IMG/VR virus record: IMGVR_UViG_3300042520_001372
Source: a virus
Strand: one strand, 5' to 3'
Length of the DNA stretch: 64,000 bases
Notes under the pieces: model-generated
The model's database searches: none
Told to the model about the DNA's origin: nothing
The model's input: only the letters and a program-made list of their open reading frames with translations
Made by a program: the position numbers and the translations under genes
In this document: positions 11,495-44,647 of the stretch, one piece after another
Layout of the letters: the number at the start of each line of letters is the position of its first letter
Position numbering within the stretch: position 1 is the stretch's first letter

Positions 11495-12418
11495 TTATTG
11501 TCTAAGTGTTTTTTTGTTTCTGTAATTTACATCTGTGAACATTGTTGGGATCATATCTGTATGAGTTGCTCTGATAGGATTAATATCCAATCCTCCTCTA
11601 CGGGTATACAAACAAGCTACCATCAAACGAGAAGGTTGATAAGCTTCTGTTAAATGCATAAACATCATCTCACAAATCTCTTCGTGGAAATGAGACACCT
11701 CTCTATGAGATACGATGTACTTTGCTAACGATTTGAAATCAGGAGCATTTGTTCCGGTAGTCTCAATCTCGATATAAACATCACCCCAGTCTGGTTGGTT
11801 GGTTACCCTACAGTTACTTCTCAAAAGGTTTGAAGTTATCTTAGTCGTAACTGCTACCTCATTAGGAGCTACTTCCATTGATTGCAACTGACTAGCATCT
11901 GAATGGAATGTATCGAAAGTTTCTTCGTCTAAATTAACTGCCTGGTCAAGGTGTATGTAATCTGTTCCAAACTCTACCTCAGGAGTAAACTCGTTCGTAA
12001 AGAACTTAACTTCAACTTCTGTCTGTAATAGTTTAGATAGATCTTTAGTGACCATCTGCTCAACTAAGTTAACACATTCGTGTGCTGTAGAACCCAAACG
12101 GGTCATGTTAAAGGAGTTCAAGTAAAGCTTGATTGACTTAGACTCTACGTGAGCAGGACTATCTGCCGGACAGTAGATCTTCATCATTCCGTTTACCGGA
12201 CGTCCATTCTCTGTGATTGCTGATACTTCATAAGCATTCCAAACATCACCGCCTACAAAGGGTAGGTCACCTTCTTTAATGCTGTAACTCTCTCGGTTGT
12301 AGTAGCGAGGTACTGCAACGAGAAGCTCAGGAGCATACGTTGACTTGTAACCCTCACCGCCTACCTTACCAAGGTGTTTGCCGGCAATTTCAATTACTGT
12401 ATTTTGATTATTATCCAT
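11495..12418 (-). CDS. queF: NADPH-dependent preQ0 reductase (bimodular QueF)
   Basis: VESKSIKLYLNSF, LLRSNCRVTNQPDWG, FHEEICE, YTRRGGLDINP. Confidence 0.95.
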   Translation of the reverse strand: MDNNQNTVIEIAGKHLGKVGGEGYKSTYAPELLVAVPRYYNRESYSIKEGDLPFVGGDVWNAYEVSAITENGRPVNGMMKIYCPADSPAHVESKSIKLYLNSFNMTRLGSTAHECVNLVEQMVTKDLSKLLQTEVEVKFFTNEFTPEVEFGTDYIHLDQAVNLDEETFDTFHSDASQLQSMEVAPNEVAVTTKITSNLLRSNCRVTNQPDWGDVYIEIETTGTNAPDFKSLAKYIVSHREVSHFHEEICEMMFMHLTEAYQPSRLMVACLYTRRGGLDINPIRATHTDMIPTMFTDVNYRNKKTLRQ

Positions 12419-12947
12419 GATTCTTTATTGTTGTATAAAATTTTTCTAATCTTTCTTCTACTGATCCTGTTAGGTATACTACAGGAACTTTTATATGCTT
12501 AATGTATCGTTCAAATAAGTCTACTATATCATCTCTGAATTGAGTATTAGTGCTCCTGGTTCCATCGTCTACGATATCGAATTCAGGCTTTAGATAGAAG
12601 ATATAATCATAGCGATCCTTGTAATGATTGAATACGTTCATAGAGTATTCCCATACCCACTTCTCAACACTACCTTGCTGGTATAACCAATGAGTATAAA
12701 CTACTCCGTCGATGACACATCTATCCATAATAGCATCAGTATACAGAGTATTCTTAATATGCTCATTCATAATTAGAAGCTGGGTAGTATTACCTCCTGC
12801 TTCGTTTATCTTCAAACCCTTCTTAACCATCCGGCGGGTAATCTCGTCGATGAATTCGTATTTGTACCTGAACTCCTCGTTCTGCTTAATTGCTTCTAGT
12901 AGAGTAGTCTTACCTGTTGATTGAGCTCCTGTAAATGATATTCTCAT
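12411..12947 (-). CDS. P-loop nucleotide kinase (AAA_28/dNMP kinase-like)
   Basis: GAQSTGKTT, DR..ID..VY, DDGTR. Confidence 0.8.
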   Translation of the reverse strand: MRISFTGAQSTGKTTLLEAIKQNEEFRYKYEFIDEITRRMVKKGLKINEAGGNTTQLLIMNEHIKNTLYTDAIMDRCVIDGVVYTHWLYQQGSVEKWVWEYSMNVFNHYKDRYDYIFYLKPEFDIVDDGTRSTNTQFRDDIVDLFERYIKHIKVPVVYLTGSVEERLEKFYTTIKNHG

Positions 12948-12974
12948 TAGTATTAATATACGAAGTTAATTTGA

Positions 12975-13520
12975 TTAAAGCCAATGTCTTTTAAGAAAGT
13001 TTACCCACATATCGACTGAGATGTTATGCAGCTTCTGAAACATTTCATCCATTGTAAGGTTCCTGATGCTTATCTGCTGAGATCTAACTACCGGACCATC
13101 ATCCACTCCTGCTGTTACTTGATGAATTACACAGCCGGAACTACTCAAATCTAGATTCCAGGCTTTCATCTGAGGATCTTTTCCTTTCAGTTCAGGGTAT
13201 TTAGTGATCAAACCAGGATGTCCATTGTAGATAGTTGAATACTCTTCAATCACTTCTGTAGGTATTACTCTTAACCATCCATGTAAGGTGATCACGTATG
13301 TATCAATACCGATTGCTTCTGCTAAGACGCTACGGTAGTCTTCTACGGTTGGTTGGTTCGGTAATGTTATAATATTTTTAGAGAGCACCTCTTGGTTTAT
13401 TTTCCTTAACCGGGCCGGTCTTTCATTGGTAATAATAACATCAGGCCATCGATCTAAATGATTACTTACTTCAGCAATCTCGTTGCCAGTCTGAGAGAAG
13501 AATGCAATCCACTTACCCAT
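12975..13520 (-). CDS. dpdN: PurN-like formyltransferase; probable preQ1 formyltransferase (DpdN-like)
   Basis: FFSQTG, LHGWLRVIP, NGHPG, GCVIH.V..GVDDGP; sits between the DpdA-like gene and queF; start corrected to MGKW. Confidence 0.75.
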   Translation of the reverse strand: MGKWIAFFSQTGNEIAEVSNHLDRWPDVIITNERPARLRKINQEVLSKNIITLPNQPTVEDYRSVLAEAIGIDTYVITLHGWLRVIPTEVIEEYSTIYNGHPGLITKYPELKGKDPQMKAWNLDLSSSGCVIHQVTAGVDDGPVVRSQQISIRNLTMDEMFQKLHNISVDMWVNFLKRHWL

Positions 13521-14304
13521 TCCACCATGCTTTAAAGACGTCAATATTCCAATCTAAGTTATGCTTGCTGATTTGGTCTGCCGGGTAGTTAATTAATTCA
13601 AATAGCTTCTGAGACTCTTTTGTCTTAAGCCCGGAGTGAGGATAAGGAATTCCTTTAATAGCATGTACTACTGGGTTAGAAGTATCCATTGAGTAAATCC
13701 AATCATATCCTTTGTAGAACTGACCTTCTTGAGGTAATGCACAACCGAGTAAGTGGTGAGGCTTTTGCTTATTAATAATACCGTCCTTCTCTAATCTGCC
13801 TAGCAAAGCAACTCTTCCTAGCATCCAGCTTACAAGCTTGTTCGGATTAGGAACTATTTTTTCATAGAGAGAATAATCAAAAGAGATTGCAATCATATCA
13901 ACATCCAGCTTGTCATCTAAAGTCTGATAGCATTCCACGATCTCCTCATAAGTCTTTCCTTGAACTACTGCAATACTTTTACCCTTAGCGGTTGGTCTAT
14001 GAAACTGATTCCATACGTAAGCATTAAAGATTGTTGTCTTTGCATCCTCTAAAGCATCTGGGATGATGTACCAGGTAGGCTCAAGCTTATTATTCCATTC
14101 GAAGAACTTCTTCATATCAAAAGCCTCTCCTAATTCAAAGATTGAATTATCTAAAATAACTTCTCGTTCTTTACAGGCTTCAACAAAGGCTTCTTTATAG
14201 GCTTCACTCTCCTCTAACAAATGAACTAAGCAGTAATCGTAATCAGTCTTAGTTTGAACGTAAGAGAATAAATCGATAGGAGATTCGTGCGCTATCTTAA
14301 TCAT
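13513..14304 (-). CDS. dpdA: TGT-fold 7-deazaguanine transglycosylase (DpdA/DpdA3-like)
   Basis: ILDNS, IIPD, AVVQG, HHLLG, SMDTS motifs of TGT/DpdA barrels; in operon with folE and queF. Confidence 0.75.
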   Translation of the reverse strand: MIKIAHESPIDLFSYVQTKTDYDYCLVHLLEESEAYKEAFVEACKEREVILDNSIFELGEAFDMKKFFEWNNKLEPTWYIIPDALEDAKTTIFNAYVWNQFHRPTAKGKSIAVVQGKTYEEIVECYQTLDDKLDVDMIAISFDYSLYEKIVPNPNKLVSWMLGRVALLGRLEKDGIINKQKPHHLLGCALPQEGQFYKGYDWIYSMDTSNPVVHAIKGIPYPHSGLKTKESQKLFELINYPADQISKHNLDWNIDVFKAWWNG

Positions 14305-14981
14305 TACTTGCAGCTATATCCTTTAACGAATTCGTAAAACTCTGCTCTTGCTGAATCTTCCATCATGAAGCATCCTGATAACTTTGAAGTTTTCATAGAA
14401 GCTCCTGCATGCTTTACTCCTCTGCAAGATACGCAATTGTGGGTTGCTTCGACCATTACAGCTACTCCCTGATTACCTTCACAAATCTTATTCACTGCGT
14501 TATGGACTGCAACTGTATATTGTTCTTGGATTGTTCCTCTTCTTCCGAAGTATTCAACAATCCTATTTAGCTTTGATAAACCGACAACCTTACCTTCTGG
14601 AGAAGGAATGTAACCGATATGAACCCGGCCTTGGATTGTTTGGTGATGATGAGAACACATAGAGGTAATTGGAATATTGCCTTCAAATACCATTCCGTCG
14701 TATCCATCTGAAGGAAATGCAGTAACGTTATCCATCATATCGTAACGTCCTTTCCATAAATCGAATACGTATGCTTTTGCTACCCTGCGAGGAGTATCAG
14801 AAGAGTTAGGATCATTCTTCCAATCACAACCTAATGCATCTAGAAACTTTCCGTAAGCATCTGCTGCCTTATCAACCATCTTCCATTTCTCTTTTTCGGT
14901 GAACGGATAACCGGGTGCCTTGCCGTTAGCAAAGCCCATGCTCGCTAATTCAAGACCGTCTGAAAATTCTTTTAAATCCAT
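14304..14981 (-). CDS. folE: GTP cyclohydrolase I
   Basis: DTPRRVAK, SMCSHH, GLSKLNR, IQE, H.C...RGV. Confidence 0.96.
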   Translation of the reverse strand: MDLKEFSDGLELASMGFANGKAPGYPFTEKEKWKMVDKAADAYGKFLDALGCDWKNDPNSSDTPRRVAKAYVFDLWKGRYDMMDNVTAFPSDGYDGMVFEGNIPITSMCSHHHQTIQGRVHIGYIPSPEGKVVGLSKLNRIVEYFGRRGTIQEQYTVAVHNAVNKICEGNQGVAVMVEATHNCVSCRGVKHAGASMKTSKLSGCFMMEDSARAEFYEFVKGYSCK

Positions 14982-18696: not shown

Positions 18697-19010
18697 ATTT
18701 TATCTATTAGGTTTTTAATTTCAACACATTTTAAGTAATCTTCTTCCTGCTGATAAATAGTTAGAATAAGGTTTAATAATTTCTTGAACTGCTTCCTCTC
18801 GACTGAAAGATCTAATCCATAGTAAACCATTCTAAATAAGACTAGTTCGTCTCTTCCATCATTGATTGCATCGGTGATTCTTTCTAATACTCTCAACTTA
18901 ATAACTTCTTTGAACTCAGGAGTCTTGAGAGTTTCGGCAAAGCTTTGTTCAATATCTTCTTCGTCCTCAAAATAAACTTCGAGGTAGATTGGCTCATCTA
19001 TTTTCTTCAT
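18693..19010 (-). CDS. hypothetical protein with C-terminal UVR-like motif
   Basis: L.IY.QEEDYLKC.EIKNLI. Confidence 0.7.
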   Translation of the reverse strand: MKKIDEPIYLEVYFEDEEDIEQSFAETLKTPEFKEVIKLRVLERITDAINDGRDELVLFRMVYYGLDLSVERKQFKKLLNLILTIYQQEEDYLKCVEIKNLIDKI

Positions 19011-19762
19011 AGTATAAATTTTAAATTAGTTTCTGGATGAGAATAAATATAGCTACTCCATTTGTATTTTGCATACTCGTGTCCTTTTTGTTCTGCCTGC
19101 AGTCTTTTTTCGCCGTTAGTTGAAATGGAAGCAAAATGGTAAAAGTGACAATTATATGTTCTAACCATTTTTAAATCTGATATAGCACATTTTAAAAAGA
19201 AATCCCAATCAGCTACCATACCTGCTTCATAATTTTCATCCCATCCGCCTAATCTTATGTAATCATATTTGTTCATAAAGATCGGTAAAGTTGATCCCGA
19301 TTCTTCTGTTTTACCCTCCCTGACTGAATTTTCGTAATCCCAGTAAGTTTGTAGGTCAAACGTTTTAGGATCTCTTCCTAGATCCTTAATATGGAATTGT
19401 CTGAAGATAGAAGGAGAAGGCTCGATTTGATTAGGAGCTAATACATATCCGGGTTTATATTCCTCAAGTAACACTTGATCCCATACATCCGGAAAGACAT
19501 TATCATCATTTACAATCAGAATCTTATCAAACTTAGCATTATAAACTCCTAAGTTAGTTGCCCGGCAAAGCCCGACGTTCTCTTCTAAAACTAGAATCTC
19601 AACAGAGTCTTTATACCTATCAAGAACCTCCTTATTAACCTCATAGAACCCATCTACCACTACTATAATTTGGTTGTTTAACCTCTGTCCGTTAATGGCT
19701 GATCTTAAACATAAGTCCAGCGTTTCAGGCTCTTTATATGTAGGGATGATTACTGAGATCAT
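19007..19762 (-). CDS. glycosyltransferase family 2
   Basis: ISVIIPTY, VVVDG, N.G...A.N.G, VNDD, GGWDE, D.DF. Confidence 0.9.
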   Translation of the reverse strand: MISVIIPTYKEPETLDLCLRSAINGQRLNNQIIVVVDGFYEVNKEVLDRYKDSVEILVLEENVGLCRATNLGVYNAKFDKILIVNDDNVFPDVWDQVLLEEYKPGYVLAPNQIEPSPSIFRQFHIKDLGRDPKTFDLQTYWDYENSVREGKTEESGSTLPIFMNKYDYIRLGGWDENYEAGMVADWDFFLKCAISDLKMVRTYNCHFYHFASISTNGEKRLQAEQKGHEYAKYKWSSYIYSHPETNLKFIL

Positions 19763-20454
19763 ACTAAGCTCCAATCTGTTAGAGGTGATAGCCAAGCTGT
19801 CTCTCCATGAGTTGCATACCCGGGAATAGAGCTTATTAATAACTCTCCCTGCTCTCTCAAATCTAAGAACATTTTAAAGTCCTCAGGATAGCTTCCTTGA
19901 GTATACTTACGGAGAGTTTCTTCTGTTCTCTTTAATGTTGAGACTGTAGCTGCAAAGGTCATAGTAGTTGAGTTTGTTATCTTCCAATGAGTTGATTCCG
20001 TTAAGTATACTCGAGTATCTTCTGCTCCTCCTTCACAGTAGGGATTCCCTCCTCGGGATGGCGGTAGATACTTATCAGGATGATCATATAAAGATATGAA
20101 CGAAGCTCCTAATTGCAAACCTTCTTTAATAATTTTATCTGAGTTTGGTTTATGTAAGTAATCATTCTCTAGGAAGTAAACAACTTCTTCATCCGGTAAT
20201 TGCAGCGCTTCATCTAAAGCCAAGTTAAAGGTACCTGCTCCATGACCGACAGAAATATACTCAATAAAGTTTCTAGGGCTATGCTTTTGAATCATATCGT
20301 TAGTCTCTTCTGAGATATTATCTGCAAGGATAGTCCAGTCGTTATCAAACCAAGGGAAGGTCTGGATAGCATTCTTCAGACAGGCCTCATTGTTTATGTA
20401 AACTGGTTTTACTTTGCTATAACCTGAATCGGATATTCTATAGATTATTTTCAT
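19759..20454 (-). CDS. GT-A fold glycosyltransferase-like protein
   Basis: ILADN, VVYFLENDYLH, SLYDHPD, STTMTFA. Confidence 0.7.
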   Translation of the reverse strand: MKIIYRISDSGYSKVKPVYINNEACLKNAIQTFPWFDNDWTILADNISEETNDMIQKHSPRNFIEYISVGHGAGTFNLALDEALQLPDEEVVYFLENDYLHKPNSDKIIKEGLQLGASFISLYDHPDKYLPPSRGGNPYCEGGAEDTRVYLTESTHWKITNSTTMTFAATVSTLKRTEETLRKYTQGSYPEDFKMFLDLREQGELLISSIPGYATHGETAWLSPLTDWSLV

Positions 20455-20457
20455 ATA

Positions 20458-21348
20458 CTATGATAGCAAATTTATTATATGATTTGCAACTTCTTTATCG
20501 GCTAAGTAGGCATCTAGTACCGTATGAGGATCTCCAAAATATTCTCTAGGACCTAAACGAGGCTGTTTAATCTGCTTTAACACTCCATTCCAACCGTAAA
20601 GCTGTAAATTAAAGTCGCCTGTAATTACAGTCTTAGTCCCTACTCCTGCAGCAATTGTAGCTAATCCTCCATCAGTTCCGATAAATGCAACACAATGCTT
20701 CATTATAGAAGCTTCAAACAAAAGTGATTTTTGATCATCATCTGGCAAATATAAAGTCTGTTGCTGGTTGGCATCTCCAACACCGATTGGGTATAAAGTA
20801 AAATGCTCCTGCAGTTCGTTTACTATGTATTGAATGTCTCTATGTGCTCCTCCGTAACCTAGGTTTGGAACATCTACACCTGCTTCATACTGCTCAGGAG
20901 TAAATAGGTAAGTCTTTGGTTGCCAATTAGTCATAAAAGCAAGAACTGGTTTGTTACCTGTCTGTCTTAATTCAACAACAACATCTCTAGCAATAGCATC
21001 ATATTCCGGAGTGGTGTAAACTACATACCCGGAGGATAATTCTTCAAAGCCGGCTTGCTGTTGGTATTGTTCGCAAGGAGTAATTTGATAGTCTAAAGCT
21101 CCTAACTCAATAACCTTGCTGTAATTATTCCCAGTACAGGGATGATAAGGTTTAGGGCCTGGTATTTGTGATATAAAGACCCTATCTATAAATGGATTGT
21201 TCTCAACTAATTGAGCTACTTGTGGAAAGCCGATTAAGTAATCTACTTGAGAATAACCTTCTCCTTTTAGCTTTTCAGCTAAGGATGTTGCGAAGATAAT
21301 ATCTCCAAAGAAGCCAAAAGTTACTACTAAACAATTAGTATTGCTCAT
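20458..21348 (-). CDS. GT9/heptosyltransferase-like GT-B glycosyltransferase
   Basis: FGDIIFATS, L.ENNPFIDRV, FIGTDGG...IAAG.G. Confidence 0.8.
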   Translation of the reverse strand: MSNTNCLVVTFGFFGDIIFATSLAEKLKGEGYSQVDYLIGFPQVAQLVENNPFIDRVFISQIPGPKPYHPCTGNNYSKVIELGALDYQITPCEQYQQQAGFEELSSGYVVYTTPEYDAIARDVVVELRQTGNKPVLAFMTNWQPKTYLFTPEQYEAGVDVPNLGYGGAHRDIQYIVNELQEHFTLYPIGVGDANQQQTLYLPDDDQKSLLFEASIMKHCVAFIGTDGGLATIAAGVGTKTVITGDFNLQLYGWNGVLKQIKQPRLGPREYFGDPHTVLDAYLADKEVANHIINLLS

Positions 21349-21712
21349 AGGATTTTTCTTCCACAAATAATGAACCTGTCAGTAGGTTAATTTCTTTTTT
21401 AACTTCTGCTCTCTTGTCGTTAGTAACATAAATTTGTCTAGCATAATGAATAAACTCTTCATCAAAGACTTTATTCTTCTCTTTCATTCGAATATCATCC
21501 TCTAGATCCCAAAGTGTTTCGTTAACTGTTTTCACTTTTTCGTATAGGATACGAACCTGCTCATCTTCTAAAAGGCTAGCTCCTATATTAGTTAATTCTG
21601 TATACTCTGTATGTATGTTCTTCAGTTTACTTTCGTCTGAAATCCGTTCTAATTTAATTTGCAGTATGCTAATTTTATCTAGCAACTCTCCGTCTGATAT
21701 TTCTACTTTCAT
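21335..21712 (-). CDS. DUF6165 family protein
   Basis: S.GELLDKISILQIK...N..LWD.ED..R...AR.IY..ND.R...K..IN...S...EEKSY. Confidence 0.85.
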   Translation of the reverse strand: MKVEISDGELLDKISILQIKLERISDESKLKNIHTEYTELTNIGASLLEDEQVRILYEKVKTVNETLWDLEDDIRMKEKNKVFDEEFIHYARQIYVTNDKRAEVKKEINLLTGSLFVEEKSYEQY

Positions 21713-22437
21713 AAATTTATTTTGTAGTTGTTTGATTTAATCCATTTTACATTCTCTAATCCTATTGGTATTTCCTCTAAAGTATATTCAATATTATCAT
21801 AACCAACATGCCTATATTCATAAGCTTTTTGGTATAGCATCTTTCCTTCGTAGAAGTCTCTTTGATCCTGTTCTGGTTTCAAATGCATTGCTCCATTATC
21901 ATCATGGTACAAACAGAAATAAGTACCTTCAGACTGTCTCACTACAGGAATACTAGCCCATCTTAGTCTCTCTCTTAAGTCTTCATCTTCGTTACCCCAC
22001 CCTTTATATAGAGGATTTAAACCGTTAATAACCTCAAACTGCTCTCTTGACATCATTACAACCCCGCCGTAAAAATTAGGATCGATTGCTTGAGAGAAGC
22101 TTCTGTAACCGCCTGGAATGTCATGCTCAGGCCTTAAGCTTGCGTTGTCCTTATCAAGGAAGAATGCTTTTGCTCCCATTAGAGTAACAGTTCCGGTAAA
22201 AGTATAATCTAAATCGTCAGCTGGATAATAATCAACCTGATGTAGAATAATAACATCCCCGGTTGCTTCTTTGAAGCCAATATTATTTACAATAGCAATC
22301 TGGAAATTATCTTCGTTACCTTGTTCGGAGATTATAATTTCATATTCTTTATCTGCAAACTTATCTTGCAGTCTTGGTAGCAATACCTCCAGATGCTCTT
22401 CCCTATTCCGGTAAGGTATAATAATTGAGTATTTCAT
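21709..22437 (-). CDS. galactosyltransferase-like (GT7/GT2) glycosyltransferase
   Basis: IIIPYRNREEHL, GGV, NG....Y.GWGNEDED. Confidence 0.88.
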   Translation of the reverse strand: MKYSIIIPYRNREEHLEVLLPRLQDKFADKEYEIIISEQGNEDNFQIAIVNNIGFKEATGDVIILHQVDYYPADDLDYTFTGTVTLMGAKAFFLDKDNASLRPEHDIPGGYRSFSQAIDPNFYGGVVMMSREQFEVINGLNPLYKGWGNEDEDLRERLRWASIPVVRQSEGTYFCLYHDDNGAMHLKPEQDQRDFYEGKMLYQKAYEYRHVGYDNIEYTLEEIPIGLENVKWIKSNNYKINL

Positions 22438-23203
22438 CTCCGAATCTATCATATTGGTGAATAACTGTGTAGTCTTTTAAAGTATTCAAATCAAACTTAA
22501 CCACTCCTTCTTTAATAACATGTAGATGAACTGCAAATTTATCTTCTAGACTTGTGAAGGTTGTTTTATGTTTGTAAGAATTTCTTGTAAGATAATTAAA
22601 AGAAGTCTGATCGGCAACTTTAAATTTACCACAAGACATTAGGAAGATATCTTTACATAGAGCTTTAACATCCTCTGCTCCGCCTCCAAATACTCCAACA
22701 TTAAGAACTTCCTCTTCTGCTAATTCAGATCCTAGGAAGCCTAAGTTAACATAAAGATGTTCTAAGTTCCATCTGTGATCTTCATACTTAATAACCTCCC
22801 CGGTTGCAATGATGCCTTCTAAAGGTACTCTTGAAAAAGGTGATTGAGTAAACACAACGTCCTTCACATCTGTTATGAATACTTTCTCATACTGCATATC
22901 ATTAAGGAAGTTAGCAATGTGAAGGAACCGAATATTATGTACTAGGTTGTAAGAGCTTTCCGGGGTTACTCTTCCGGTGTCTGTCAAAAACTCATCCTGT
23001 ATCGCTCCAAAGAAATTAACCTGTGGAAGGTAAACATCTACATTATTTTCAGCTAAGTATGATACTAAAGGTGAATTTGAATTTCCATTATATAAATACA
23101 AGACTCTGTCTGTATCTTCGAACTTAGAAGTTTGCACCCAATTCTTAATATCAGCAACAGAATAGTTATTACTGATTGCTCCTATAAGTAAATTTTTATT
23201 CAT
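22403..23203 (-). CDS. GT-A glycosyltransferase-like protein
   Basis: RF...FITDVKDVVF...PF, LNVGVFGG, DQ..FN, HQYDR. Confidence 0.75.
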   Translation of the reverse strand: MNKNLLIGAISNNYSVADIKNWVQTSKFEDTDRVLYLYNGNSNSPLVSYLAENNVDVYLPQVNFFGAIQDEFLTDTGRVTPESSYNLVHNIRFLHIANFLNDMQYEKVFITDVKDVVFTQSPFSRVPLEGIIATGEVIKYEDHRWNLEHLYVNLGFLGSELAEEEVLNVGVFGGGAEDVKALCKDIFLMSCGKFKVADQTSFNYLTRNSYKHKTTFTSLEDKFAVHLHVIKEGVVKFDLNTLKDYTVIHQYDRFGDEILNYYTLPE

Positions 23204-32012: not shown

Positions 32013-32028
32013 ATTATTAATATATGAA

Positions 32029-33970: not shown

Positions 33971-35406
33971 TAATATTTTAATTTATGAACTATCTTCTTT
34001 CTAGCAACTTCTCCTGCAAGGATTAATTCGTATTTTTCTCTCGGTGTCCAAGTTTCAAATAGAGTATCCATATGCTTAACGATTCTTTCTCCCATGATTT
34101 TAGAAGTAAACCCTGCTTCCGGACCTGCAGCCCACTTCCTACCAGCTTCACCTCTCCTCTTTCTCTCTGTATTTCCAAGCAAGTACACCTCCTCGATCAT
34201 CTGAGCAGCATCCTCTGCTTCACATCTATCATCCCAGATGTAAGGAGTTGGTACTGAACCTTGGATTGATCTTGAGACTGGATAGACTGGGAATGCCCAC
34301 TCTCCATGCTCTCTATAAGTACCTCTGTGATTGGATGGGAAATCGTAATCAAAGTCCATCCATACTCCATCTTTAACAAATCTCATCTGGTCTTGCATTC
34401 CACCGGTAACGTTTGCAATAATAGGCATACCTACAAGTAGAGCCTCAGTCAAACATAAACCCCATCCCTCATTCGAGGTTAATAGTATGCAAGTATCTGC
34501 GAGGTTATACAACCAGTTCATCCGAGTATGATCGAACATACCTCCTGTGAAATGAACGTTGATATGCTCCTCCGAACAGAATAATTCAACGACTGCATTT
34601 AAGTCTGTTCCATGCTCTTCAACCGGCTGGGTATGCATAAGAAGTAAACACTTCTTTGCTTTCTCTTTTGGAAGACTATCCACGAAGTGTCTGAATGCTA
34701 AGATTGTATCCGGGATCTGTTTCCGGCGAATGTTCCTGGAATTAAATAGAACGACGAAGTCGATCTCCTTTCCTTGAAACATCTGCTTTTTAAACTCCGT
34801 AAACTCTTTTGAACCTAATACGTCTTCAGTTAACGGTTTAAAATTGTCTTCGTTTACTCCATGAGGTACATACTCAATCATTTTATATTGAGCTTTATCT
34901 CCTAAGACTAATTTATTGATATTAACTGTCTGCTTTGAAATGCCGAACAATGCATCACACGACTCATAAAACTCTTTATTGTAGAGAGGTGCCGGATAGT
35001 CATCCCAAATATTCAAATACACGATCGGGATGTGTCTCCGGATCTCATTCTCCATTTGGAATAACCAAGTCCAATATCTTGGATCGGTAATGATGAAGAT
35101 TGCATCCGGCTTCTCCATTTGAATTAACTGGCGGGTTAGATCGGGATTTCCGTACCCGTCTGTCGGATAGAGCATCACCGAGGAATCCTGGATGCCGGCT
35201 TGCCTGTTAGTATCCTCGGAGAGATCAAAGCGTTGACCAGCTTCTGGATGCTTGACAGCTCCTCCTAAGTTAACCCAATTAAAGTGGTGAGCTGTATTGA
35301 TCACAAGCTCCCGACCCATGTGAGCGATACCGGAATGAACCCGAATGTCATCGCACATTAATAAAATTTTCTTTCGTTTGTCTTTTCGTATGTAACCGTC
35401 TTTCAT
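33970..35406 (-). CDS. glycosyltransferase family 4-like (GT-B)
   Basis: SGIA, YVPHG, RNIRRK, SNEGWGL...EA...G.PII...TGG..DQ. Confidence 0.9.
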   Translation of the reverse strand: MKDGYIRKDKRKKILLMCDDIRVHSGIAHMGRELVINTAHHFNWVNLGGAVKHPEAGQRFDLSEDTNRQAGIQDSSVMLYPTDGYGNPDLTRQLIQMEKPDAIFIITDPRYWTWLFQMENEIRRHIPIVYLNIWDDYPAPLYNKEFYESCDALFGISKQTVNINKLVLGDKAQYKMIEYVPHGVNEDNFKPLTEDVLGSKEFTEFKKQMFQGKEIDFVVLFNSRNIRRKQIPDTILAFRHFVDSLPKEKAKKCLLLMHTQPVEEHGTDLNAVVELFCSEEHINVHFTGGMFDHTRMNWLYNLADTCILLTSNEGWGLCLTEALLVGMPIIANVTGGMQDQMRFVKDGVWMDFDYDFPSNHRGTYREHGEWAFPVYPVSRSIQGSVPTPYIWDDRCEAEDAAQMIEEVYLLGNTERKRRGEAGRKWAAGPEAGFTSKIMGERIVKHMDTLFETWTPREKYELILAGEVARKKIVHKLKY

Positions 35407-35687: not shown

Positions 35688-36641
35688 TTATTTAAACTTC
35701 GCCCCTGCATGCTCGCAGTGCCTTGGCTGTTCGTAGAACGGACAAAACTTACAAGCACTAGCCGAGGGTGTTCTTGCATACACTCTCTCTTTTATCTCCC
35801 CTGTCGGTTCGAAACATTCTTTAATAAACTCTTCCATCTTACCAACTGCTTTCTTAGTCTTAATCGGACCTGAAGCTGGAATGAACTCCTGCACTCTCTT
35901 CTGAACGAAATCAGATTGTTCCCAAAGCTTTCTTTTAACAATAAAGAACTTAATATGAATCTTCTCCGGATTAACTCCGAACTGCTTATTAAAGAAATTC
36001 TTATAGAGGATCAATTGAGATTGTTTCATCTCGTCTTTCTTATCCTTGTCACCCCAACCTCTGGTCGAAGTCTTGATATCAAAGATATGATACTCGTCTG
36101 AAGGTTCATGATATAGAACTAAGTCAATAAAGCCTTTGAATAATACTCCCGGATGGTCTTCAATAGGTTGAATCATTAGTGGAATTTCAACTCCTACTAA
36201 ATGCCAACCCTGTTTGCCGAAGTAAGCTGCTCTATTCTTTTTAATATACTTAAGGATAGTGCAGCCGTCTTCGTAGAACTCCTGTAAGTCTTTCGCAGTA
36301 ACAAAATGCTCTCCGTTGTTATTCTTCTTCTCGTCTGAGTAATGGAAGATTAATCCTTCGTAAAGTTTATCTTCTAAGTCCATCGCATCGGCTGCCACTC
36401 CTGATACTTCATATAGGGTTGTTAGCCAGTCCTGAACTGTTTCATGGAATGCTTTACCGAACACAGTATGAATGGAAGGCTTATAGACTTTAATCTTGTC
36501 TTTATAAGTTAGCTTCCAACGGTGAGGACATTGATTATAGACCTGCATTTGAGAGTAAGAGATGTTCTTCTGAGTCTCTTTGTCGATCTCCAGAAGCTTA
36601 TGCTCCCGGATCTGCTTAATTACTTTCGGTAACTTGATCAT
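35688..36641 (-). CDS. PD-(D/E)XK Cas4/RecB-like exonuclease with Fe-S cysteines
   Basis: SYSQ...Y..CP, G...H, E..., GFID, D.KTS, QL..Y, C.FCPF....C. Confidence 0.88.
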   Translation of the reverse strand: MIKLPKVIKQIREHKLLEIDKETQKNISYSQMQVYNQCPHRWKLTYKDKIKVYKPSIHTVFGKAFHETVQDWLTTLYEVSGVAADAMDLEDKLYEGLIFHYSDEKKNNNGEHFVTAKDLQEFYEDGCTILKYIKKNRAAYFGKQGWHLVGVEIPLMIQPIEDHPGVLFKGFIDLVLYHEPSDEYHIFDIKTSTRGWGDKDKKDEMKQSQLILYKNFFNKQFGVNPEKIHIKFFIVKRKLWEQSDFVQKRVQEFIPASGPIKTKKAVGKMEEFIKECFEPTGEIKERVYARTPSASACKFCPFYEQPRHCEHAGAKFK

Positions 36642-36852
36642 CGATCTCCTGTTTAAGTCTTTCTAAGTATAGAATACCGTCCATGAGTTCTTCTTGGGCG
36701 TGGTTGATCCATTCTACTTTACTTAGATCTTTTCTATCGAGAGTGTTGCTGTATTTCTTAAAGCCCATCTCGGCTCTATCAACAAACTTATTTAAGATAG
36801 AATCAACAATAGAATCAGGAATGAAGTTAGTATAATTAATCTTTCTGCTCAT
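36616..36852 (-). CDS. small all-alpha NTP pyrophosphohydrolase-like (MazG-like) protein
   Basis: R...G..KY...L.R.D....W..HAQEELMD..LY (EExxD). Confidence 0.55.
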   Translation of the reverse strand: MSRKINYTNFIPDSIVDSILNKFVDRAEMGFKKYSNTLDRKDLSKVEWINHAQEELMDGILYLERLKQEIDDQVTESN

Positions 36853-37344: not shown

Positions 37345-37543
37345 CTTCTAATGGTTCAACTGTTTGTACTTCATTAACAAAGAAGTATTCGTCTCCGTGT
37401 TTGAATACTTTCTCGGCATGCCATGCCTCTTTTATTTCATTGGCTGATTCGGTAGGGAGAACAGCTCCAGGTCGAAGCTTTAAGATCCTAACAACCTCAT
37501 ACATGTTATCCTGTATAAGAACTATTCTCCCCTTGCCAACCAT
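37235..37543 (-). CDS. hypothetical protein
   Basis: Coupled to the groEL stop; C-terminus overlaps the next gene. Confidence 0.6.
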   Translation of the reverse strand: MVGKGRIVLIQDNMYEVVRILKLRPGAVLPTESANEIKEAWHAEKVFKHGDEYFFVNEVQTVEPLEDEQDRNQGELTVDSTENTAGGQMDLGGGDGDQEEHN

Positions 37544-39171
37544 TACCCTAGCATTAATTGATTAGACGCATCGTCCATGCTGTTAGAACCGTTCTCTGTA
37601 AGTTCATCTGCAACTACACATTCAGTCAATAGGATTGTTCCTGCTACTGATGCTGCATTCTCTAGAGCCGTTCTAGTTACTTTAAATGGATCAATGATAC
37701 CAGCATCTTTTAAATTAGTAACATTCTCTTCTGTAAGATTCCAACCTGTCCACTTATCGGAATTCGCGCAAATTTGCCCGCTAATATCAGATATTTGTTG
37801 GTACTCATAACCAGCATTAGTTAGAATTTTATAGAATGGCATTGTACATGCCATGTATATAATTTGATATCCGGTACTTGTCTCACTGGCAGTCCAGCTA
37901 GGCATACTTCGTAGTAAAGCAATTCCGCCGCCAGGAACAATTCCTTCAGCAATAGCAGCTCTTGTAGCATGTAAAGCATCCTCTACTCGGTCCTTCTTCT
38001 CTTTCATTTCAAGTTCTGAATTACCTCCAACGTGAATGATTGATACCCCGCCTGTAAATTTAGCTAAACGCTCCTGAAGCTTCTCCATCTCAAAAGGACT
38101 CTTTGCATTATCGATCTGAGCTTTCAAGTCTTCAATACGAGAAGTAATAGCTTCTACTTCACCTTTACCGTCGATGATAGTAGTAGATTCTTTCTGGATA
38201 TTAGCCTTGCGTGCTTCACCTAACCATGCTTTATCTACCCGGCTTAACTTCATTCCTTTCTCAGGAGAGATTACTTGACCGCCTGTCAAGACTGCAATGT
38301 CTTCCATGATAAGCTTTCTTCTATCTCCGAAGTCAGGAGCTTTAACTGCACATACTTTAATAGTACCTCTCATCTTATTTACAATCAAGGTAGCCAAAGC
38401 TTCATTATCAATATCTTCGCAGATGATCAACAACGATTTATTATCAGATGAAACTGATTCGAGGATAGGAAGTAAGTCCTTAGCCTGTGAAAGCTTCCCA
38501 TCATAAATTAAAACTAAGGGATTGTCTAACACTGAAGACATAGTTGCATTATCAGTAACGAAGTGAGGTGATTTAAATCCTCGATCGAACTGAATACCTT
38601 CAACTGTCTCTAAGTAGGTATCACCCGTCCTAGATTCTTCAATAGTAACAATCCCGTCTCTGCCTACTGCAGCTAATGCTGAAGTGATTAGAGAACCTAC
38701 CTCAGGGTCGTTGTTTGCAGACACAGAAGCGATCTGGTCTAACTGCCCCTCTGAAGTAATATCTTCAGCGATATTTTCTTTGATGTAAGCAATTACTTCT
38801 TTAACTGCTTTATCGATATCGCGTTTAATTTGTACTGCATTACCTCCGTTATCTAAGGCTTTTAATCCTTGATTGGTAATGAATTGAGCAAGTAGGGTTG
38901 CTGTAGTAGTTCCATCACCAGCAATGTTTGCTGTCTTGATAGCTGCTTGTTTAAGCATATCAACGGCGATTGAATGTACTGGGTCTTTCAAAGAGATAAT
39001 CTTTGCAACCGTAACTCCGTCCTTGGTAGAACGAACTTCACCTGTCTCATTTCTATAAACAACATTCCGGCCGTTAGGTCCTAAAGTTGCTGTAACTGCA
39101 TTTGCAATCTTATCAATTCCTTCTGATAATTTCTTGCGTGCTTGGTTTGAATATTCTATCTGTTTGCTCAT
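37543..39171 (-). CDS. groEL: chaperonin GroEL
   Basis: TLGPNGRNV, TKDGVTVAK, AGDGTTTAT, KAPDFGDRRK, GIVPGGG, IIDP.KVTR. Confidence 0.97.
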   Translation of the reverse strand: MSKQIEYSNQARKKLSEGIDKIANAVTATLGPNGRNVVYRNETGEVRSTKDGVTVAKIISLKDPVHSIAVDMLKQAAIKTANIAGDGTTTATLLAQFITNQGLKALDNGGNAVQIKRDIDKAVKEVIAYIKENIAEDITSEGQLDQIASVSANNDPEVGSLITSALAAVGRDGIVTIEESRTGDTYLETVEGIQFDRGFKSPHFVTDNATMSSVLDNPLVLIYDGKLSQAKDLLPILESVSSDNKSLLIICEDIDNEALATLIVNKMRGTIKVCAVKAPDFGDRRKLIMEDIAVLTGGQVISPEKGMKLSRVDKAWLGEARKANIQKESTTIIDGKGEVEAITSRIEDLKAQIDNAKSPFEMEKLQERLAKFTGGVSIIHVGGNSELEMKEKKDRVEDALHATRAAIAEGIVPGGGIALLRSMPSWTASETSTGYQIIYMACTMPFYKILTNAGYEYQQISDISGQICANSDKWTGWNLTEENVTNLKDAGIIDPFKVTRTALENAASVAGTILLTECVVADELTENGSNSMDDASNQLMLG

Positions 39172-39174
39172 AAC

Positions 39175-39486
39175 TTAAAAAGGTACTGATGTAAAATCGT
39201 CTTCGATGATAGCTAAGATTTGATTCTCTGGACCGATGTAGTAATCTTCTCCTTTGAATTCGAACTTAGTAAAGCCCATCGTTGGTAGAACGGCAATATC
39301 ACCGAACTTGGCTGTAGTCTTTACGAAACCAACTCCTGGGATTGTTATTCCGTCTCCGACAGATATTACCTGGCCGATCTTATTCTTTTCATTTCCTAAA
39401 TCTGGAACGATGATGTTCCCGTGTAACTCTTCCTCCAACTCGTAAGGCTTAAGGATAACTGCGTTATAAATTGCTTTTAATTTCAT
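39175..39486 (-). CDS. groES: co-chaperonin GroES
   Basis: GNIIVPD, G.VISVG.G, GD.., E..ILAI; adjacent to groEL. Confidence 0.92.
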   Translation of the reverse strand: MKLKAIYNAVILKPYELEEELHGNIIVPDLGNEKNKIGQVISVGDGITIPGVGFVKTTAKFGDIAVLPTMGFTKFEFKGEDYYIGPENQILAIIEDDFTSVPF

Positions 39487-39827: not shown

Positions 39828-40160
39828 TTAAATACCAAAACTTTCACCGCAGCCGCAAGTCCTGCTTGCGTTTGGGTTAGTGAATAGGAATCCTTTGCCG
39901 TTTAGGCCTTCAGTAAAGTCTAATTCGGTTCCTAATAAATACAGTAGAGATCTTTTATCAATAACTAATTTTAAACCTTGATCTTCTGATATTTCATCAA
40001 AAGGAACTATCGTATCATCAAAGTCTAAATCATAAGTTAGACCAGAACAACCTCCACCTTTCACCGATACTCTTAAAAAATGATCTTCGGTGCATTGTTC
40101 CTCCACCATCAGTTTGTCTAATTGGGATTTGGCTTTCGTGGTCAAAGTGAATATTTTCAT
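39828..40160 (-). CDS. iscA: IscA/HesB Fe-S cluster carrier
   Basis: GGGCSG..Y, G..LDF, NPNA..TCGCGESF. Confidence 0.93.
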   Translation of the reverse strand: MKIFTLTTKAKSQLDKLMVEEQCTEDHFLRVSVKGGGCSGLTYDLDFDDTIVPFDEISEDQGLKLVIDKRSLLYLLGTELDFTEGLNGKGFLFTNPNASRTCGCGESFGI

Positions 40161-40361: not shown

Positions 40362-42698
40362 TTAGTGACCATCCCTAAAATTCTTTGCTATTTCCGGTGG
40401 TGCCTTTAAGGTTACCCCTGGTAGCTGGGTAGTGGTTTCCATAACATGCTTAACTACTTCAGCTGCTTCATGAACTAAGTCTTCTCTAATCTTAATGATC
40501 AATTGGTCATGAATCTGGGCAATAACGATACCGTCCCAGTCTCTTCTCTTAAACTCCCTATTAATGGCTAAAGCTGCTCGATTAACCACTGATGCTGCTA
40601 AAGATTGAATTTGAAAGTTTAAGCAGTTATTCAAAGCATTCTTATAATCTCCGTAGAGTCTCTTTACATTATCTCCTCCAATCTCTTTAGTAAGATCATT
40701 TCTAAACTTCCAATCCATAATCCTTTCTCCAAAAGAATCATAAACCGCTTTACCTCTATCAAGGTGTCGGATTCGACCTACTTGGTTTTTAATAAAGCCA
40801 TCTCTTTTAAACAATGCTCTTGAATTGTCAATCCATTCAGCAACTCCCGGGAACCCTTTCATATAACCTTCGTGAAGCCTCTTTCCTTCTTCTTGAGGTA
40901 CTCCTAAGGACATTGCAAGTGCGTAAGGAGACATTCCGTAAGCAACTCCTAACGAATAACCCTTTGCTTGATTTCGTTTAGGTGCATCAAGCTTCTTAAG
41001 GAAGTTAGGAGCCTTTTTATCAGCTGATACTCCGTCGGGGTACTTATCTCTTTGTTCGTCAAGCTTTTCGGTTCGGATAGCAACCGTTGAATAGAAATCA
41101 TGACCTTGACTAAAGATCTCTTGCATGGCTTCGTCATTAGATATGGAAGCGAAAATGTGAGGCTCTAAAGACTCGAAGTCATTATCAATCAACAAGTAAC
41201 CAGGGTCTGTTGTAAAGAATGCTCTGATCTCGTTATTGTATTTAACGATGATTGGATCTGCTTCTCCATCTTCTTTAGGCTTAGGTAACTGCTGAAGGTC
41301 AGATCCGTATCTGCCTGACACAGTTCCGTTCTGTTTAAAATAAGGGAAGAAACGTCCATCCTCTGCTTGATCGTAAAATCGATCCACGTAGGTTGACTTA
41401 ATCTTTAGGAGCTTATTATAGATACGTAAGTTCCTACACCATTCGTATTTGTCTGATAAAGCTTGAATCATATCATCATCGAATTGAGCTTGGCCTTTAG
41501 TCGTTTTAGATAACGGCTTCTCTTTCAAGTAGTTAAAAGCGATATCACCTAACTGCTTCTTTGATTGAATATTTAACCACTCCCCGTCGTTAAAGTCTTT
41601 CCAAAGCTTCATAGAAACTTTAGTAACAACTTCTTCAGTTAAGCAATCTAAATCTCCAGAAAGCAAATAATCTTTTACCGGACTATCCTCTAGTATAAGG
41701 ATGTTAGCCTGCTTTAAAGAATAGTTTCTCGAGTTTTTAGGTATAGGGAGCTTATACATATCAACCAACGTACAAGCCCAAGTTCCTTTATGACCTGGAG
41801 GGAATTCAGTTAATGCTGAATCGATAATCCATTCTTTAACTTTTTGTAGCTTAAGTAGTTCTTCAATTACTGCCCGGCGATACTTCTCCTGGTCAGTTAA
41901 GATAGCATCTCTAGTTTGTTCTATCAAAGGTATATCAAGGGCTATCCCTTCGATTTCCATTGGTATAGTAACCTCTCTATAAAGGGGCATTACTTCGTCT
42001 TCAAAGAAGAACTTAGTTAGTCCTTCATGCTCGAGAACCGGTAGAAAGTGATTACAAATACGCAAAGTAAGATCCGTATCCGCAGCAGCATATTCACTCA
42101 ACAGGTTAATATCTGCTTTGTAAATCTCAAAGTTATCTTTAGTAACTGAACCGCCATTCTCCTTAATTGAGTTCTTAAGGTTGATCTGTTCTTGGTTAGC
42201 TGCTTCTTCAACATTCAAACCGATCTTATCTTGAATCATAATGGCGATTGATTTTAGTCCGAAAGGACTTGCTCCATACCCGAATGCTCCTTCTTCTTTT
42301 ACCGTGTGAACTAGTAAAGCAGTATCAACCCAAAGTGAAGGTAGCAAGTTGACTTTGTAGAAGTTATCTGTATAACGGCAGTCAAAAGAAGCATTATGCA
42401 TAACAAGTTTCTTTCCAACCAGCATCGAAATAATCTTCTTTGCTATTCGATGACAGCCAATGCTTTCAATCTGACACTCGTCAAGAGTTTGAGTTTCGTT
42501 ATTCCAAAACATAGTCGGCATATAAAAGCCCATTCCTTCTTCACCCGAAACAGAAAAACCAATAATCCTTCCTTTGCGAGTATTTAAAGAGTCTGTTTCT
42601 GTATCATAAGCAAGAATCTCTTTCTCGTTAATATGCTGGATAAGGAGATCAACTAGCTCTTTGCTATTGACAAGGTAATACTTTTTTTCGACAACCAT
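40362..42698 (-). CDS. polA: family A DNA polymerase with 3'-5' exonuclease
   Basis: Exo DTET, HNASFD, YAAAD; pol GTVSGR, DFESLE, R..AK...LG..YG, IHDQL. Confidence 0.95.
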   Translation of the reverse strand: MVVEKKYYLVNSKELVDLLIQHINEKEILAYDTETDSLNTRKGRIIGFSVSGEEGMGFYMPTMFWNNETQTLDECQIESIGCHRIAKKIISMLVGKKLVMHNASFDCRYTDNFYKVNLLPSLWVDTALLVHTVKEEGAFGYGASPFGLKSIAIMIQDKIGLNVEEAANQEQINLKNSIKENGGSVTKDNFEIYKADINLLSEYAAADTDLTLRICNHFLPVLEHEGLTKFFFEDEVMPLYREVTIPMEIEGIALDIPLIEQTRDAILTDQEKYRRAVIEELLKLQKVKEWIIDSALTEFPPGHKGTWACTLVDMYKLPIPKNSRNYSLKQANILILEDSPVKDYLLSGDLDCLTEEVVTKVSMKLWKDFNDGEWLNIQSKKQLGDIAFNYLKEKPLSKTTKGQAQFDDDMIQALSDKYEWCRNLRIYNKLLKIKSTYVDRFYDQAEDGRFFPYFKQNGTVSGRYGSDLQQLPKPKEDGEADPIIVKYNNEIRAFFTTDPGYLLIDNDFESLEPHIFASISNDEAMQEIFSQGHDFYSTVAIRTEKLDEQRDKYPDGVSADKKAPNFLKKLDAPKRNQAKGYSLGVAYGMSPYALAMSLGVPQEEGKRLHEGYMKGFPGVAEWIDNSRALFKRDGFIKNQVGRIRHLDRGKAVYDSFGERIMDWKFRNDLTKEIGGDNVKRLYGDYKNALNNCLNFQIQSLAASVVNRAALAINREFKRRDWDGIVIAQIHDQLIIKIREDLVHEAAEVVKHVMETTTQLPGVTLKAPPEIAKNFRDGH

Positions 42699-42763: not shown

Positions 42764-43612
42764 TTAGATTAGAGCATTCCCTATGTGAGTCATAATATCT
42801 TGTCTAGCACCGTCAACCATTCCTGGCTCTGTCATTGACCCTGCTTTCCATACATTCCAAGCTTTCTCTACCATCTTAACACCGTCTTCGAAGTCAGAAC
42901 CTAGTACATCAATATACCCACCGATCATTTCTTCCTTAATAGTTTGCTTTTCAGCCCATGCAGCAACAATTTTTTCTGCTTCAGCAAGTACACCGTCTTC
43001 ACCATCTACCCTAGTTATAAGTTTTTCAATATACGCCTGAGCTGCTTTCTTTGAAACTACTCCGGATAGAAACTCGTCAGCTTGTCTATTTTCGCCTAGT
43101 TCATCAGCAAGCATCATAATCATACCCATCTGTTCAAAGCTTATAGCGTGAGCTGGTCTGTTTAAGATCTCAGCTGATTTGCTAGATGCTTCATTTATAG
43201 GGCTATCCTCTGGCATTTCTTCAATATAATCTATATCGCTTTCTTGGAAATCCCAGTCACCGCCACCAGCTTCTGTGCCGACAACGCTGCCGCCGTAAGT
43301 CTTACCTGTTGTAGGTGAATAACCATGTACAGTTAAGTCAGCACTATAATTGTCATAGTAGTCTAATACGTCTGCAACTTCCCATTTAATATCGGTAGGA
43401 ATATTACTACCCTCCTTCATTGGAACTGCTCCAGGAACTACAGAAGGTCCGCTACGGAGATCCATTTCTTTTTCTTCTTTTTCGTATTTATTGATAGCAG
43501 CCATTGCAGCAGCATCTTTCTCCTCTTCGGGAGTCATTACACCAGAATTTGTCTTTGGAGCTACTTCACGCATTGATCTTTTAATAAGTTCTTTTATTAC
43601 TGAACGTTTCAT
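42764..43612 (-). CDS. acidic modular protein, candidate internal head protein
   Basis: TATTTAT motif 5 nt upstream; N-terminal MK.S.IKELI....RE; repeated hydrophobic-x-E sites. Confidence 0.6.
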   Translation of the reverse strand: MKRSVIKELIKRSMREVAPKTNSGVMTPEEEKDAAAMAAINKYEKEEKEMDLRSGPSVVPGAVPMKEGSNIPTDIKWEVADVLDYYDNYSADLTVHGYSPTTGKTYGGSVVGTEAGGGDWDFQESDIDYIEEMPEDSPINEASSKSAEILNRPAHAISFEQMGMIMMLADELGENRQADEFLSGVVSKKAAQAYIEKLITRVDGEDGVLAEAEKIVAAWAEKQTIKEEMIGGYIDVLGSDFEDGVKMVEKAWNVWKAGSMTEPGMVDGARQDIMTHIGNALI

Positions 43613-43626
43613 ATCTTATAAATAGG

Positions 43627-44148
43627 TTATTTTTTCTGTTCCCAAGCATTAGTACCGCCTTGCCACTGACCGTCGTAGAGTTCGTCTACAGGAGCATTCT
43701 CATGGAAGAACATTTGAGCTGCTCTAGCATTCTTTTCTAAGATTAAGAATACGCTAACAATCATCACCGTACCCATTTTCTCTGTTTCATATCCTGAATC
43801 CCAAACGGGAGAAACAATCGAAGTTCCTGTCCTGTACAGAGAAGATCTATGAAGAACAAACCCAGTTGCATTGTCAGGAATCTTACATCCTTCGTTGAAG
43901 GTGATTGCGTAACTTCCTTTGTCTAATCTCCAGCATTCCTTGCCGTCAATCTTAACGGTATCAACTTCCATGAAGTTTAAAGGATCTATAATAGTTAAGT
44001 CCTTGTAAACTACTGAACCTGCTAAAATGCGTTCAACTTTACATACTGAAAGGTCAATTCCAACCTGGGTTGGTTTTGAGTACTGCGAAGGAATTACAAT
44101 CCCTCTCTCTAATATTTCTTTGCTTGTTAGTAACATATTATTCTTCAA
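43627..44148 (-). CDS. dUTPase/dCTP deaminase family protein
   Basis: GIDL, HRSSL.R, V.DSGY, R.AQ, Y.GQWQ. Confidence 0.85.
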   Translation of the reverse strand: MKNNMLLTSKEILERGIVIPSQYSKPTQVGIDLSVCKVERILAGSVVYKDLTIIDPLNFMEVDTVKIDGKECWRLDKGSYAITFNEGCKIPDNATGFVLHRSSLYRTGTSIVSPVWDSGYETEKMGTVMIVSVFLILEKNARAAQMFFHENAPVDELYDGQWQGGTNAWEQKK

Positions 44149-44647
44149 TTATTTCTCCGGTGATAAAAGGCTGGTTTCGCTTAGTTCCGTTAGTTGCATC
44201 AAGGCCGTAACCTACCAACCATGCTTCATTATTTAATTCAAATCCGTAGATAAGATCCTCCATATAGGAATAGCTTCTTTTAAATAAAGTAACCGGAGTA
44301 ATTGACTTAGCTCCCTTAGTTTGAAGATGGGCTATCAAGCGTTTCATAGTGTTACCCGAATCGTAGATGTCGTCAACTATAAAGACGTCCTTATCTTTTA
44401 AATCAATTGAGACATCCTTCAGAATATCTACCCGGTCTTGAACTTGCCCTAAGTATGATTTTGCTTGCATAAAGTCGATTTCACAATCAACCTCCATGTT
44501 ACGAACCAGGTCTGCGAAGAACATAAATGCTCCGTTTAGAACTCCGATCATAACCCTTGATGAATTCTCAGGATTGTTTTTGTAGCTTACCTCAAGGGCA
44601 AGACTTTTTACTCTTGTTTGAATTTCCTCTTCTGTGAATAGAACCAT
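44138..44647 (-). CDS. hpt: hypoxanthine/guanine phosphoribosyltransferase-like
   Basis: VLNGAFMFFADL, SY, IVDDIYDSG.T, VGYGLD...RN. Confidence 0.9.
   Translation of the reverse strand: MVLFTEEEIQTRVKSLALEVSYKNNPENSSRVMIGVLNGAFMFFADLVRNMEVDCEIDFMQAKSYLGQVQDRVDILKDVSIDLKDKDVFIVDDIYDSGNTMKRLIAHLQTKGAKSITPVTLFKRSYSYMEDLIYGFELNNEAWLVGYGLDATNGTKRNQPFITGEIIEE

Follow-up and report, generated by a model that had tools for sequence, protein, structure and literature searches.

Phages that replace all guanine in their DNA by a 7-deazaguanine derivative have been linked to transglycosylases of the DpdA3 subfamily. In Flavobacterium phage immuto_2-6A, fdPreQ1 replaces all deoxyguanosine (dG); the study reporting this named the formyltransferase DpdN and called all 7-deazaguanine modifications post-replicative, without once using the term "kinase" (Cui 2023, PMC10516641). 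Full replacement is also seen in phages CP220 of Campylobacter (dADG) and phiST of Cellulophaga (dDG), each with a DpdA3 homologue and a kinase gene right beside it, although their final bases differ, phiST has another kinase family together with DpdL and MazG, and CP220 is T4-like. The DpdA1/DpdA2 systems (9g, CAjan, iggy) and bacterial DpdA and tRNA-guanine transglycosylase (TGT) share the TIM-barrel transglycosylase, its three catalytic aspartates and the preQ0 pathway, yet in the DpdA1/DpdA2 systems substitution is partial and motif-specific, the enzyme is longer and neutral to basic, and no companion kinase is present; on DNA, DpdA1 enzymes are motif-limited and modify 16-28% of G (PMC10484667). 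DpdA3 has been proposed to act on DNA and failed its sole test. Here we have analysed a stretch of 64,000 nucleotides (the window) of IMG/VR virus record IMGVR_UViG_3300042520_001372, corresponding to positions 34379-98378 (minus strand) of a 166,276-bp phage record that has direct terminal repeats and is rated complete. The source phage is Immutovirus-like and occurs in lake and freshwater metagenomes; fdPreQ1 replacement has been measured only in immuto_2-6A.

The window encodes FolE, QueD, QueE, QueC, QueF, DpdA3 and DpdN, the complete fdPreQ1 set of the immuto type. It is thus a further member of an already known modification system, and our analysis concerns the route of replacement. We propose, with a probability of roughly 0.55, that guanine is swapped in the nucleotide pool: DpdA3 would act on dGMP, the kinase would feed a pool of modified dGTP, and an ordinary polymerase would incorporate it. 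Routes through the pool, taken together, appear probable. Our observations are of gene identity, fold, conserved residues, co-occurrence, fusions and charge, and from these we infer every substrate assignment.

A first line of evidence is the association between DpdA3 and a small P-loop kinase. We surveyed 248 DpdA3 loci, among them 107 with full flanks and, after clustering at 90% identity, 79 clusters with sufficient flanking sequence. A kinase lay within 5 kb of DpdA3 in 71 of the 79 clusters (14/17 at 60% identity) and near it in 96 of the 107 full-flank loci; five apparent exceptions were checked, and in four of them the kinase was found elsewhere on the contig. Among 24 larger DpdA3 records, 21 carry the kinase family of the window, and the other three, of phiST type, have an AAA_18 kinase that adjoins DpdA3 or is fused to DpdL, giving 24/24 in total. 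In DpdA1 controls the kinase family of the window was found in 0/65 loci and 0/37 whole records, and a small P-loop open reading frame (ORF) of any kind in a single locus of the 65. All three phages with chemically verified 100% replacement (immuto, CP220 and phiST) have a kinase gene beside DpdA3 or two to three genes off. A kinase gene likewise stands at DpdA3 in MA9V-3 and in Youna2, a Firmicute phage of 53 kb, which makes it less convincing to object that kinases are merely common in large genomes. Moreover, 21 DpdA3 loci without DpdN still have the kinase, which therefore tracks DpdA3 and not the formyl product.

Chryseobacterium phage MA9V-3 (L434) and Weizmannia phage Youna2 (L435) are both cultured, with the kinase adjacent to a DpdA3 that is unannotated in either, and we regard them as candidates for full G replacement.

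Parts of the pathway are also joined as fusions: DpdA3-DpdN (P0150, P0196), DpdN-kinase (P0272), DpdL-kinase and kinase-dUTPase. Since DpdN is fused both to DpdA3 and to the kinase, small-molecule substrates are favoured. The fusion of DpdL, a proposed CDG decarboxylase, to the AAA_18 kinase belongs to phiST-like phages (L088:7082-7996; L089-L091:5489-6457). The kinase-dUTPase fusion was seen in a pig-gut phage (L428:978-9866), where a single gene run holds DnaE, DpdA3, DpdN, the fusion, FolD and QueF; the formyl donor would there come from FolD.

The transglycosylase of the window is 60% identical to DpdA3 of immuto and 40% to that of CP220, and matches phiST gp65 at E 8e-8. Its predicted model (pLDDT 93) finds its best matches in archaeal TGT (Z 17.7) and in bacterial DpdA 7ui4 (Z 17.3), over 231 residues at an rmsd of 2.9-3.4, and residues D52, D83 and D207 are each conserved in at least 99% of 133 homologues. 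The structure paper of DpdA assigns three such aspartates to acid/base catalysis, recognition and the nucleophile (PMC10164549); going by position in the fold, D207 would be the nucleophile, D52 the acid/base and D83 the residue recognizing the base. With homology, the TGT/DpdA TIM barrel and the three active-site aspartates in agreement, the protein is a member of the DpdA3 subfamily. The initial annotation had recognized the gene as DpdA-like and missed the subfamily, the one already tied to 100% replacement.

DpdA3 differs from DpdA1 in size and charge. The window protein has a net charge of -11 (pI 5.2); the charge per 100 aa is -3.45 for DpdA3 vs +0.32 for DpdA1, and the length 268 aa vs 315 aa. 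FolE, QueC and QueE of the same loci show no charge difference between the two sets. An acidic, short DpdA3 speaks, indirectly, against DNA as its substrate. The missing Zn motif was dropped as an argument because phage DpdA1 shares the loss of the Zn cysteines. DpdA3 forms a large family, with 3,380 clusters at 90% identity and 1,445 representatives at 50%, and a search for long DpdA3 fusions gave none among the matches listed. One DpdA3 (P0212) has a weakly GNAT-like C-terminal domain, and another (P0123, L433:6001-7761) an unnamed N-terminal region of 317 aa in a QueF locus without DpdN; other acylated preQ1 products are possible in these two cases. A small domain that is encoded in the window upstream of queC occurs elsewhere as a C-terminal fusion on DpdA3 (P0263, P0265) or fused to the kinase (L055, L060); its nearest named Atlas cluster is the antirepressor KilAC at 0.85, which is a lead only.

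It is against this background that the published model has to be weighed, in which DpdA3 is a sequence-independent DNA transglycosylase acting after replication and the kinase a housekeeping or salvage enzyme, either a dTMP/dNMP kinase or one recycling modified nucleotides from degraded phage DNA. It is the model stated in PMC10516641, and it agrees with the TGT/DpdA fold and catalytic residues, with the failure to find a universal dGTPase or a dedicated polymerase, and with the fusion of the antirepressor-like domain to two DpdA3 proteins. We nevertheless find it rather unlikely. Activity of DpdA3 on DNA has never been demonstrated, attempts with DpdA3 alone in E. coli having failed in an assay that works for DpdA1 and DpdA2 (PMC10516641), and DpdA3 has the acidic character that DpdA1 does not. 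A housekeeping kinase would be unexpected beside DpdA3 in unrelated phages, drawn from two families and found with none of the DpdA1 phages. In addition, each G would need to be flipped and exchanged before packaging.

Under the swap on dGMP that we favour, DpdA3 would carry out the TGT double displacement on the free nucleotide, with preQ1 going in and guanine coming out, to yield d(preQ1)MP. DpdN would formylate the aminomethyl group, at the level of the base or of the nucleotide. The cluster kinase would then form the diphosphate and host nucleoside diphosphate kinase the triphosphate, which the ordinary phage family A polymerase (PolA) would incorporate, leading to the ~100% fdPreQ1 measured in immuto_2-6A. 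As an accessory, the HPRT encoded in the window could convert the released guanine to GMP and on to GTP, which would both pull the reversible swap and refill FolE. Conversion of dGTP to dGMP would need a further enzyme, for which the best local candidate is a DCD/dUTPase-like protein.

The T4 hydroxymethylcytosine (hmC) pathway parallels the proposed order of events, a dNMP being modified, phosphorylated by a phage kinase and then incorporated. The Z-genome pathway (PurZ, MazZ, DatZ, DpoZ) is alike in achieving complete purine replacement through the pool with dGMP as the start; here, no PurZ-type enzyme, dedicated polymerase or conserved dNTPase was found. The initial annotation had taken the Z-genome logic as its model; the T4 and SPO1 pathways are closer, and the polymerase with an atypical motif C on which that analogy leaned is not conserved with the modification genes. 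Both T4 and SPO1 differ from our model in using thymidylate-synthase-type enzymes on pyrimidines and in having known dNTPases. In the SPO1-type hydroxymethyluracil (hmU) pathway the sequence of modification, phosphorylation by a phage kinase and incorporation is the same (PMC8989533). At a time when DpdA3 was not yet recognized, Campylobacter phages had in fact been proposed to use a modified-dGTP route (PMC6884629), an idea given up once DpdA3 was found (PMC10516641). Our search of the literature, outside which subscription journals lay, turned up no work on this kinase or on deazaguanine incorporation by a pre-replicative route, and no described example of a transglycosylase acting on dGMP.

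The kinase itself matches AAA_28 (E 1.6e-19) and dNK (E 4.9e-5) in Pfam and a PHROG named thymidylate kinase (2.4e-25). Its closest solved structures are the NadR ribosylnicotinamide kinase, dNK, dGK and TMPK, with NadR and dNK/dGK slightly above TMPK, and its ExxR motif is aligned with those of the solved-structure matches. These matches leave room for another pool route, which we consider quite unlikely: DpdA3 would act on deoxyguanosine in the manner of a nucleoside 2'-deoxyribosyltransferase, and the kinase, as a deoxynucleoside kinase, would make the monophosphate. An acidic enzyme would then need no phosphate site. The step from monophosphate to diphosphate would be left to host Gmk, which contacts guanine N7; moreover, free dG pools are small and the AAA_18 kinase of the phiST type looks NMP-kinase-like. 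In cells infected with CP220, the ADG nucleoside was seen in the cytoplasm (PMC10516641), which would fit such a route and also speaks for the swap on dGMP, as does the restriction of DNA-acting DpdA1 enzymes to 16-28% of G.

Several observations weigh against the swap on dGMP. The structural matches do not separate a nucleoside from a monophosphate as the substrate of the kinase. The linkage counts are not phylogenetically independent, although no fewer than four unrelated phage groups and two families of kinase are represented. Five relatives selected by capsid have the kinase and DpdA3 50-100 kb apart, and DpdA3 clusters on the short contigs L108, L116 and L117 show no kinase in view. The kinase also matches 66 of 50,697 phage records, which belong to phages of Campylobacter and Flavobacterium and, in 45 cases (~30% identity), to phages of Streptomyces; the one Streptomyces phage genome checked is without DpdA3.

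The main gap of the pool model is the removal of dGTP. Genes for PRA-PH, MazG, dGTP_diPhyd_N and DCD-like proteins recur in DpdA3 clusters, yet no conserved dGTP-destroying enzyme was found among the 24 larger DpdA3 records (MazG 4/24, PRA-PH 10/24, DCD-like 9/24), and MazG, PRA-PH and DCD-like genes are all missing in CP220, G001 and G005. The DCD-like and PRA-PH genes do not co-occur in these records and so probably do the same job; this exclusivity is explained as simply by a dUTPase function. P-loop kinases of modification clusters can, furthermore, act on DNA, as does the 5-hmU DNA kinase (PMC8989533). The existence of such kinases, together with the dGTPase that was not identified, could be taken for a mixed route, in which pool synthesis is followed by clean-up of residual dG in DNA by DpdA3, or in which the kinase acts on modified DNA. 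This is the least probable reading that we considered: DG, ADG and formyl-preQ1 carry no phosphate and share no phosphorylatable group (PMC10516641), DG being without a 7-substituent.

As a separate observation, the distant kinase homologue of Streptomyces phage PumpkinSpice (L005:7210-8621), one of these phages without DpdA3, is coupled to a methyltransferase gene, and it may mark another pool-level modification.

Table 1. Features of the window (window coordinates) with the basis of each assignment.
Feature	Position	Strand	Basis or remark
queF, preQ0 reductase (preQ0 to preQ1)	11495-12418	minus	PF14819 and PF14489
P-loop nucleoside/nucleotide kinase (dNK/TMPK/NadR-type)	12411-12947	minus	Pfam and PHROG
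Promoter-like 9-mer TCGTATATT	12955-12963	minus	just upstream of the kinase gene; putative function
dpdN, PurN-like preQ1 formyltransferase, 181 aa	12975-13520	minus	PF00551; E 3e-65 to immuto gp67 (= DpdN)
dpdA3, compact acidic TGT-fold 7-deazaguanine transglycosylase, 263 aa	13513-14304	minus	homology and fold
folE, GTP cyclohydrolase I (GTP to H2NTP)	14304-14981	minus	Pfam PF01227, E 4e-44
78-aa helical-hairpin protein with EELMD motif	36616-36852	minus	link to the pathway weak
Family A DNA polymerase (PolA), replicative	40362-42698	minus	PF00476
DCD/archaeal-type dUTPase-like protein	43627-44148	minus	PF22769; PDB 9w59 (probable dUTPase), E 2e-12
HPRT-type purine phosphoribosyltransferase	44138-44647	minus	best PDB matches HGXPRT/HPRT, E 5e-27; PRPP-binding VDD motif
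queE, CDG synthase	47185-47976	minus	radical SAM; E 5e-122 to immuto QueE
queD, CPH4 synthase	48614-49078	minus	PTPS; E 6e-78 to immuto QueD
queC, preQ0 synthase	49673-50491	minus	PF06508, E 3e-38
Small domain upstream of queC	50629-50904	minus	fused elsewhere to DpdA3 or kinase

The kinase, DpdA-like, PurN-like, HPRT, PolA and 78-aa genes called in the initial annotation were all recovered at the same positions on the minus strand (Table 1). With immuto_2-6A the window shares the gene set and the order dpdA3-dpdN-kinase-queF; it differs in that folE abuts dpdA3, that queE/D/C, HPRT and polA lie 26-36 kb off, and that a DCD-like gene takes the place of the PRA-PH NTPase. The folE stop and the dpdA3 start overlap by 1 nt, and the ATG of dpdN at 13520 overlaps the dpdA3 stop, a longer dpdN frame (TTG, to 13544) being probably an over-call. 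The kinase gene had been described as translationally coupled inside the operon. It does lie inside, yet the coupling holds downstream only, by an 8-nt overlap with queF, since on its upstream side a gap of 27 nt with the 9-mer TCGTATATT separates it from dpdN. This 9-mer has 12 copies in the genome; every one is on the coding strand, with an ORF start 13-131 nt downstream.

The idea that guanine is modified at the nucleotide level thus gains from the linkage of the kinase to DpdA3 in unrelated lineages, with two kinase families, from the fusions, from the absence of the kinase with DpdA1 and from the acidic DpdA3. The proteins first proposed to carry it out, namely the phosphoribosyltransferase (PRTase), the MazG-like protein and the dedicated PolA, are mostly not supported. 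In the route built on these, HPRT would join preQ0 or preQ1 to phosphoribosyl pyrophosphate (PRPP), the kinase and a class II ribonucleotide reductase would turn the product into the modified dNTP, the MazG-like protein would destroy dGTP and a dedicated PolA would select the analogue. HPRT, kinase, reductase (genome positions 29589-31445) and PolA are indeed all encoded, and a PRTase occurs in 17 of the 24 larger DpdA3 records. Such a route would have no job for the universally conserved and catalytically intact DpdA3, and modified ribonucleotides would get into RNA, so we hold it to be very unlikely; the behaviour of its individual members, described below, adds to this.

The HPRT homology of the PRTase was borne out, its specificity to the pathway was not: a PRTase lies near 63 of the 107 full-flank DpdA3 loci and also near 19 of the 65 DpdA1 loci, and none was detected in CP220. 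The DpdA1 ones are often fused to FolE (L264, L271, L273, L300, L303, L335 and others), and PRTase profile matches to FolE ORFs proved, on checking, to be real fusions. The PRTase was therefore dropped as a diagnostic of a pool route, because it accompanies DpdA1 too and guanine salvage suits both routes; the HPRT of the window is probably an accessory that salvages the released guanine. A DCD-like gene is coupled to it in the window; such a gene lies near 19 of the 107 full-flank DpdA3 loci and near 1 of the 65 DpdA1 loci. The product of the window gene is probably a dUTPase, and is at the same time the best candidate in the window for a dGTP pyrophosphatase.

The 78-aa ORF does contain the EELMD motif, its only EExxD motif, but its MazG-like nature was left unconfirmed, as it gave no Pfam, named PHROG or PDB sequence match. 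It is modelled as a simple hairpin of helices without a clear match in fold, and fold and sequence searches gave nothing above noise. It is present in 8 of 32 DpdA3 records, all three verified phages lack it, it lies within the DpdA3 cluster in one lineage only, and most of the 179 phage records that carry it are of other phages; its link to the pathway is weak.

PolA, 61% identical to that of immuto, has the atypical motif C H730-D731-Q732 (usually HDE), as had been noted, and a Leu at the 762-equivalent of the O-helix. HDQ is found in all 60 relatives where the motif was read. The HDQ PolA is absent from 11 capsid-selected relatives, among which all five large contigs have DpdA3 and keep the kinase while using PolB. 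Other DpdA3 phages have DnaE (L428) or, in Youna2, a PolA with HDS in motif C; thus polymerases of families A, B and C all occur. The HDQ motif is lineage-specific and was dropped as a mark of a dedicated polymerase. A dedicated polymerase is unnecessary: ordinary polymerases accept 7-deaza-dGTP, and groups at position 7 face the major groove. The PolB in place of PolA in G006-G010, capsid relatives at 61-65%, is a swap of polymerase family within a phage group.

Other genes of the window include a stretch of ~16 kb with glycosyltransferase, methyltransferase and sugar-nucleotide genes (19007-35406, minus), and phage GroEL/GroES with an IscA-like Fe-S assembly gene (37543-39486 and 39828-40160, minus), the last of which could serve the radical-SAM enzyme QueE. 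Oligonucleotide bias in the genome (CCGG over-represented at 1.26, GGATCC at 0.35 and CCATGG at 0.38 avoided, even though G should be fully modified) was uninformative on the route and was set aside.

A replacement of guanine in the pool contradicts the published post-replicative conclusion, and it rests on comparative evidence. The test of DpdA3 in E. coli may have failed because the kinase and pool enzymes were missing. If the proposed route is true, it would be a second purine-replacement pathway beside Z and would give the TGT fold a new class of substrate. It would also provide an enzymatic way to 7-deaza-dGTP analogues and restriction-resistant DNA.

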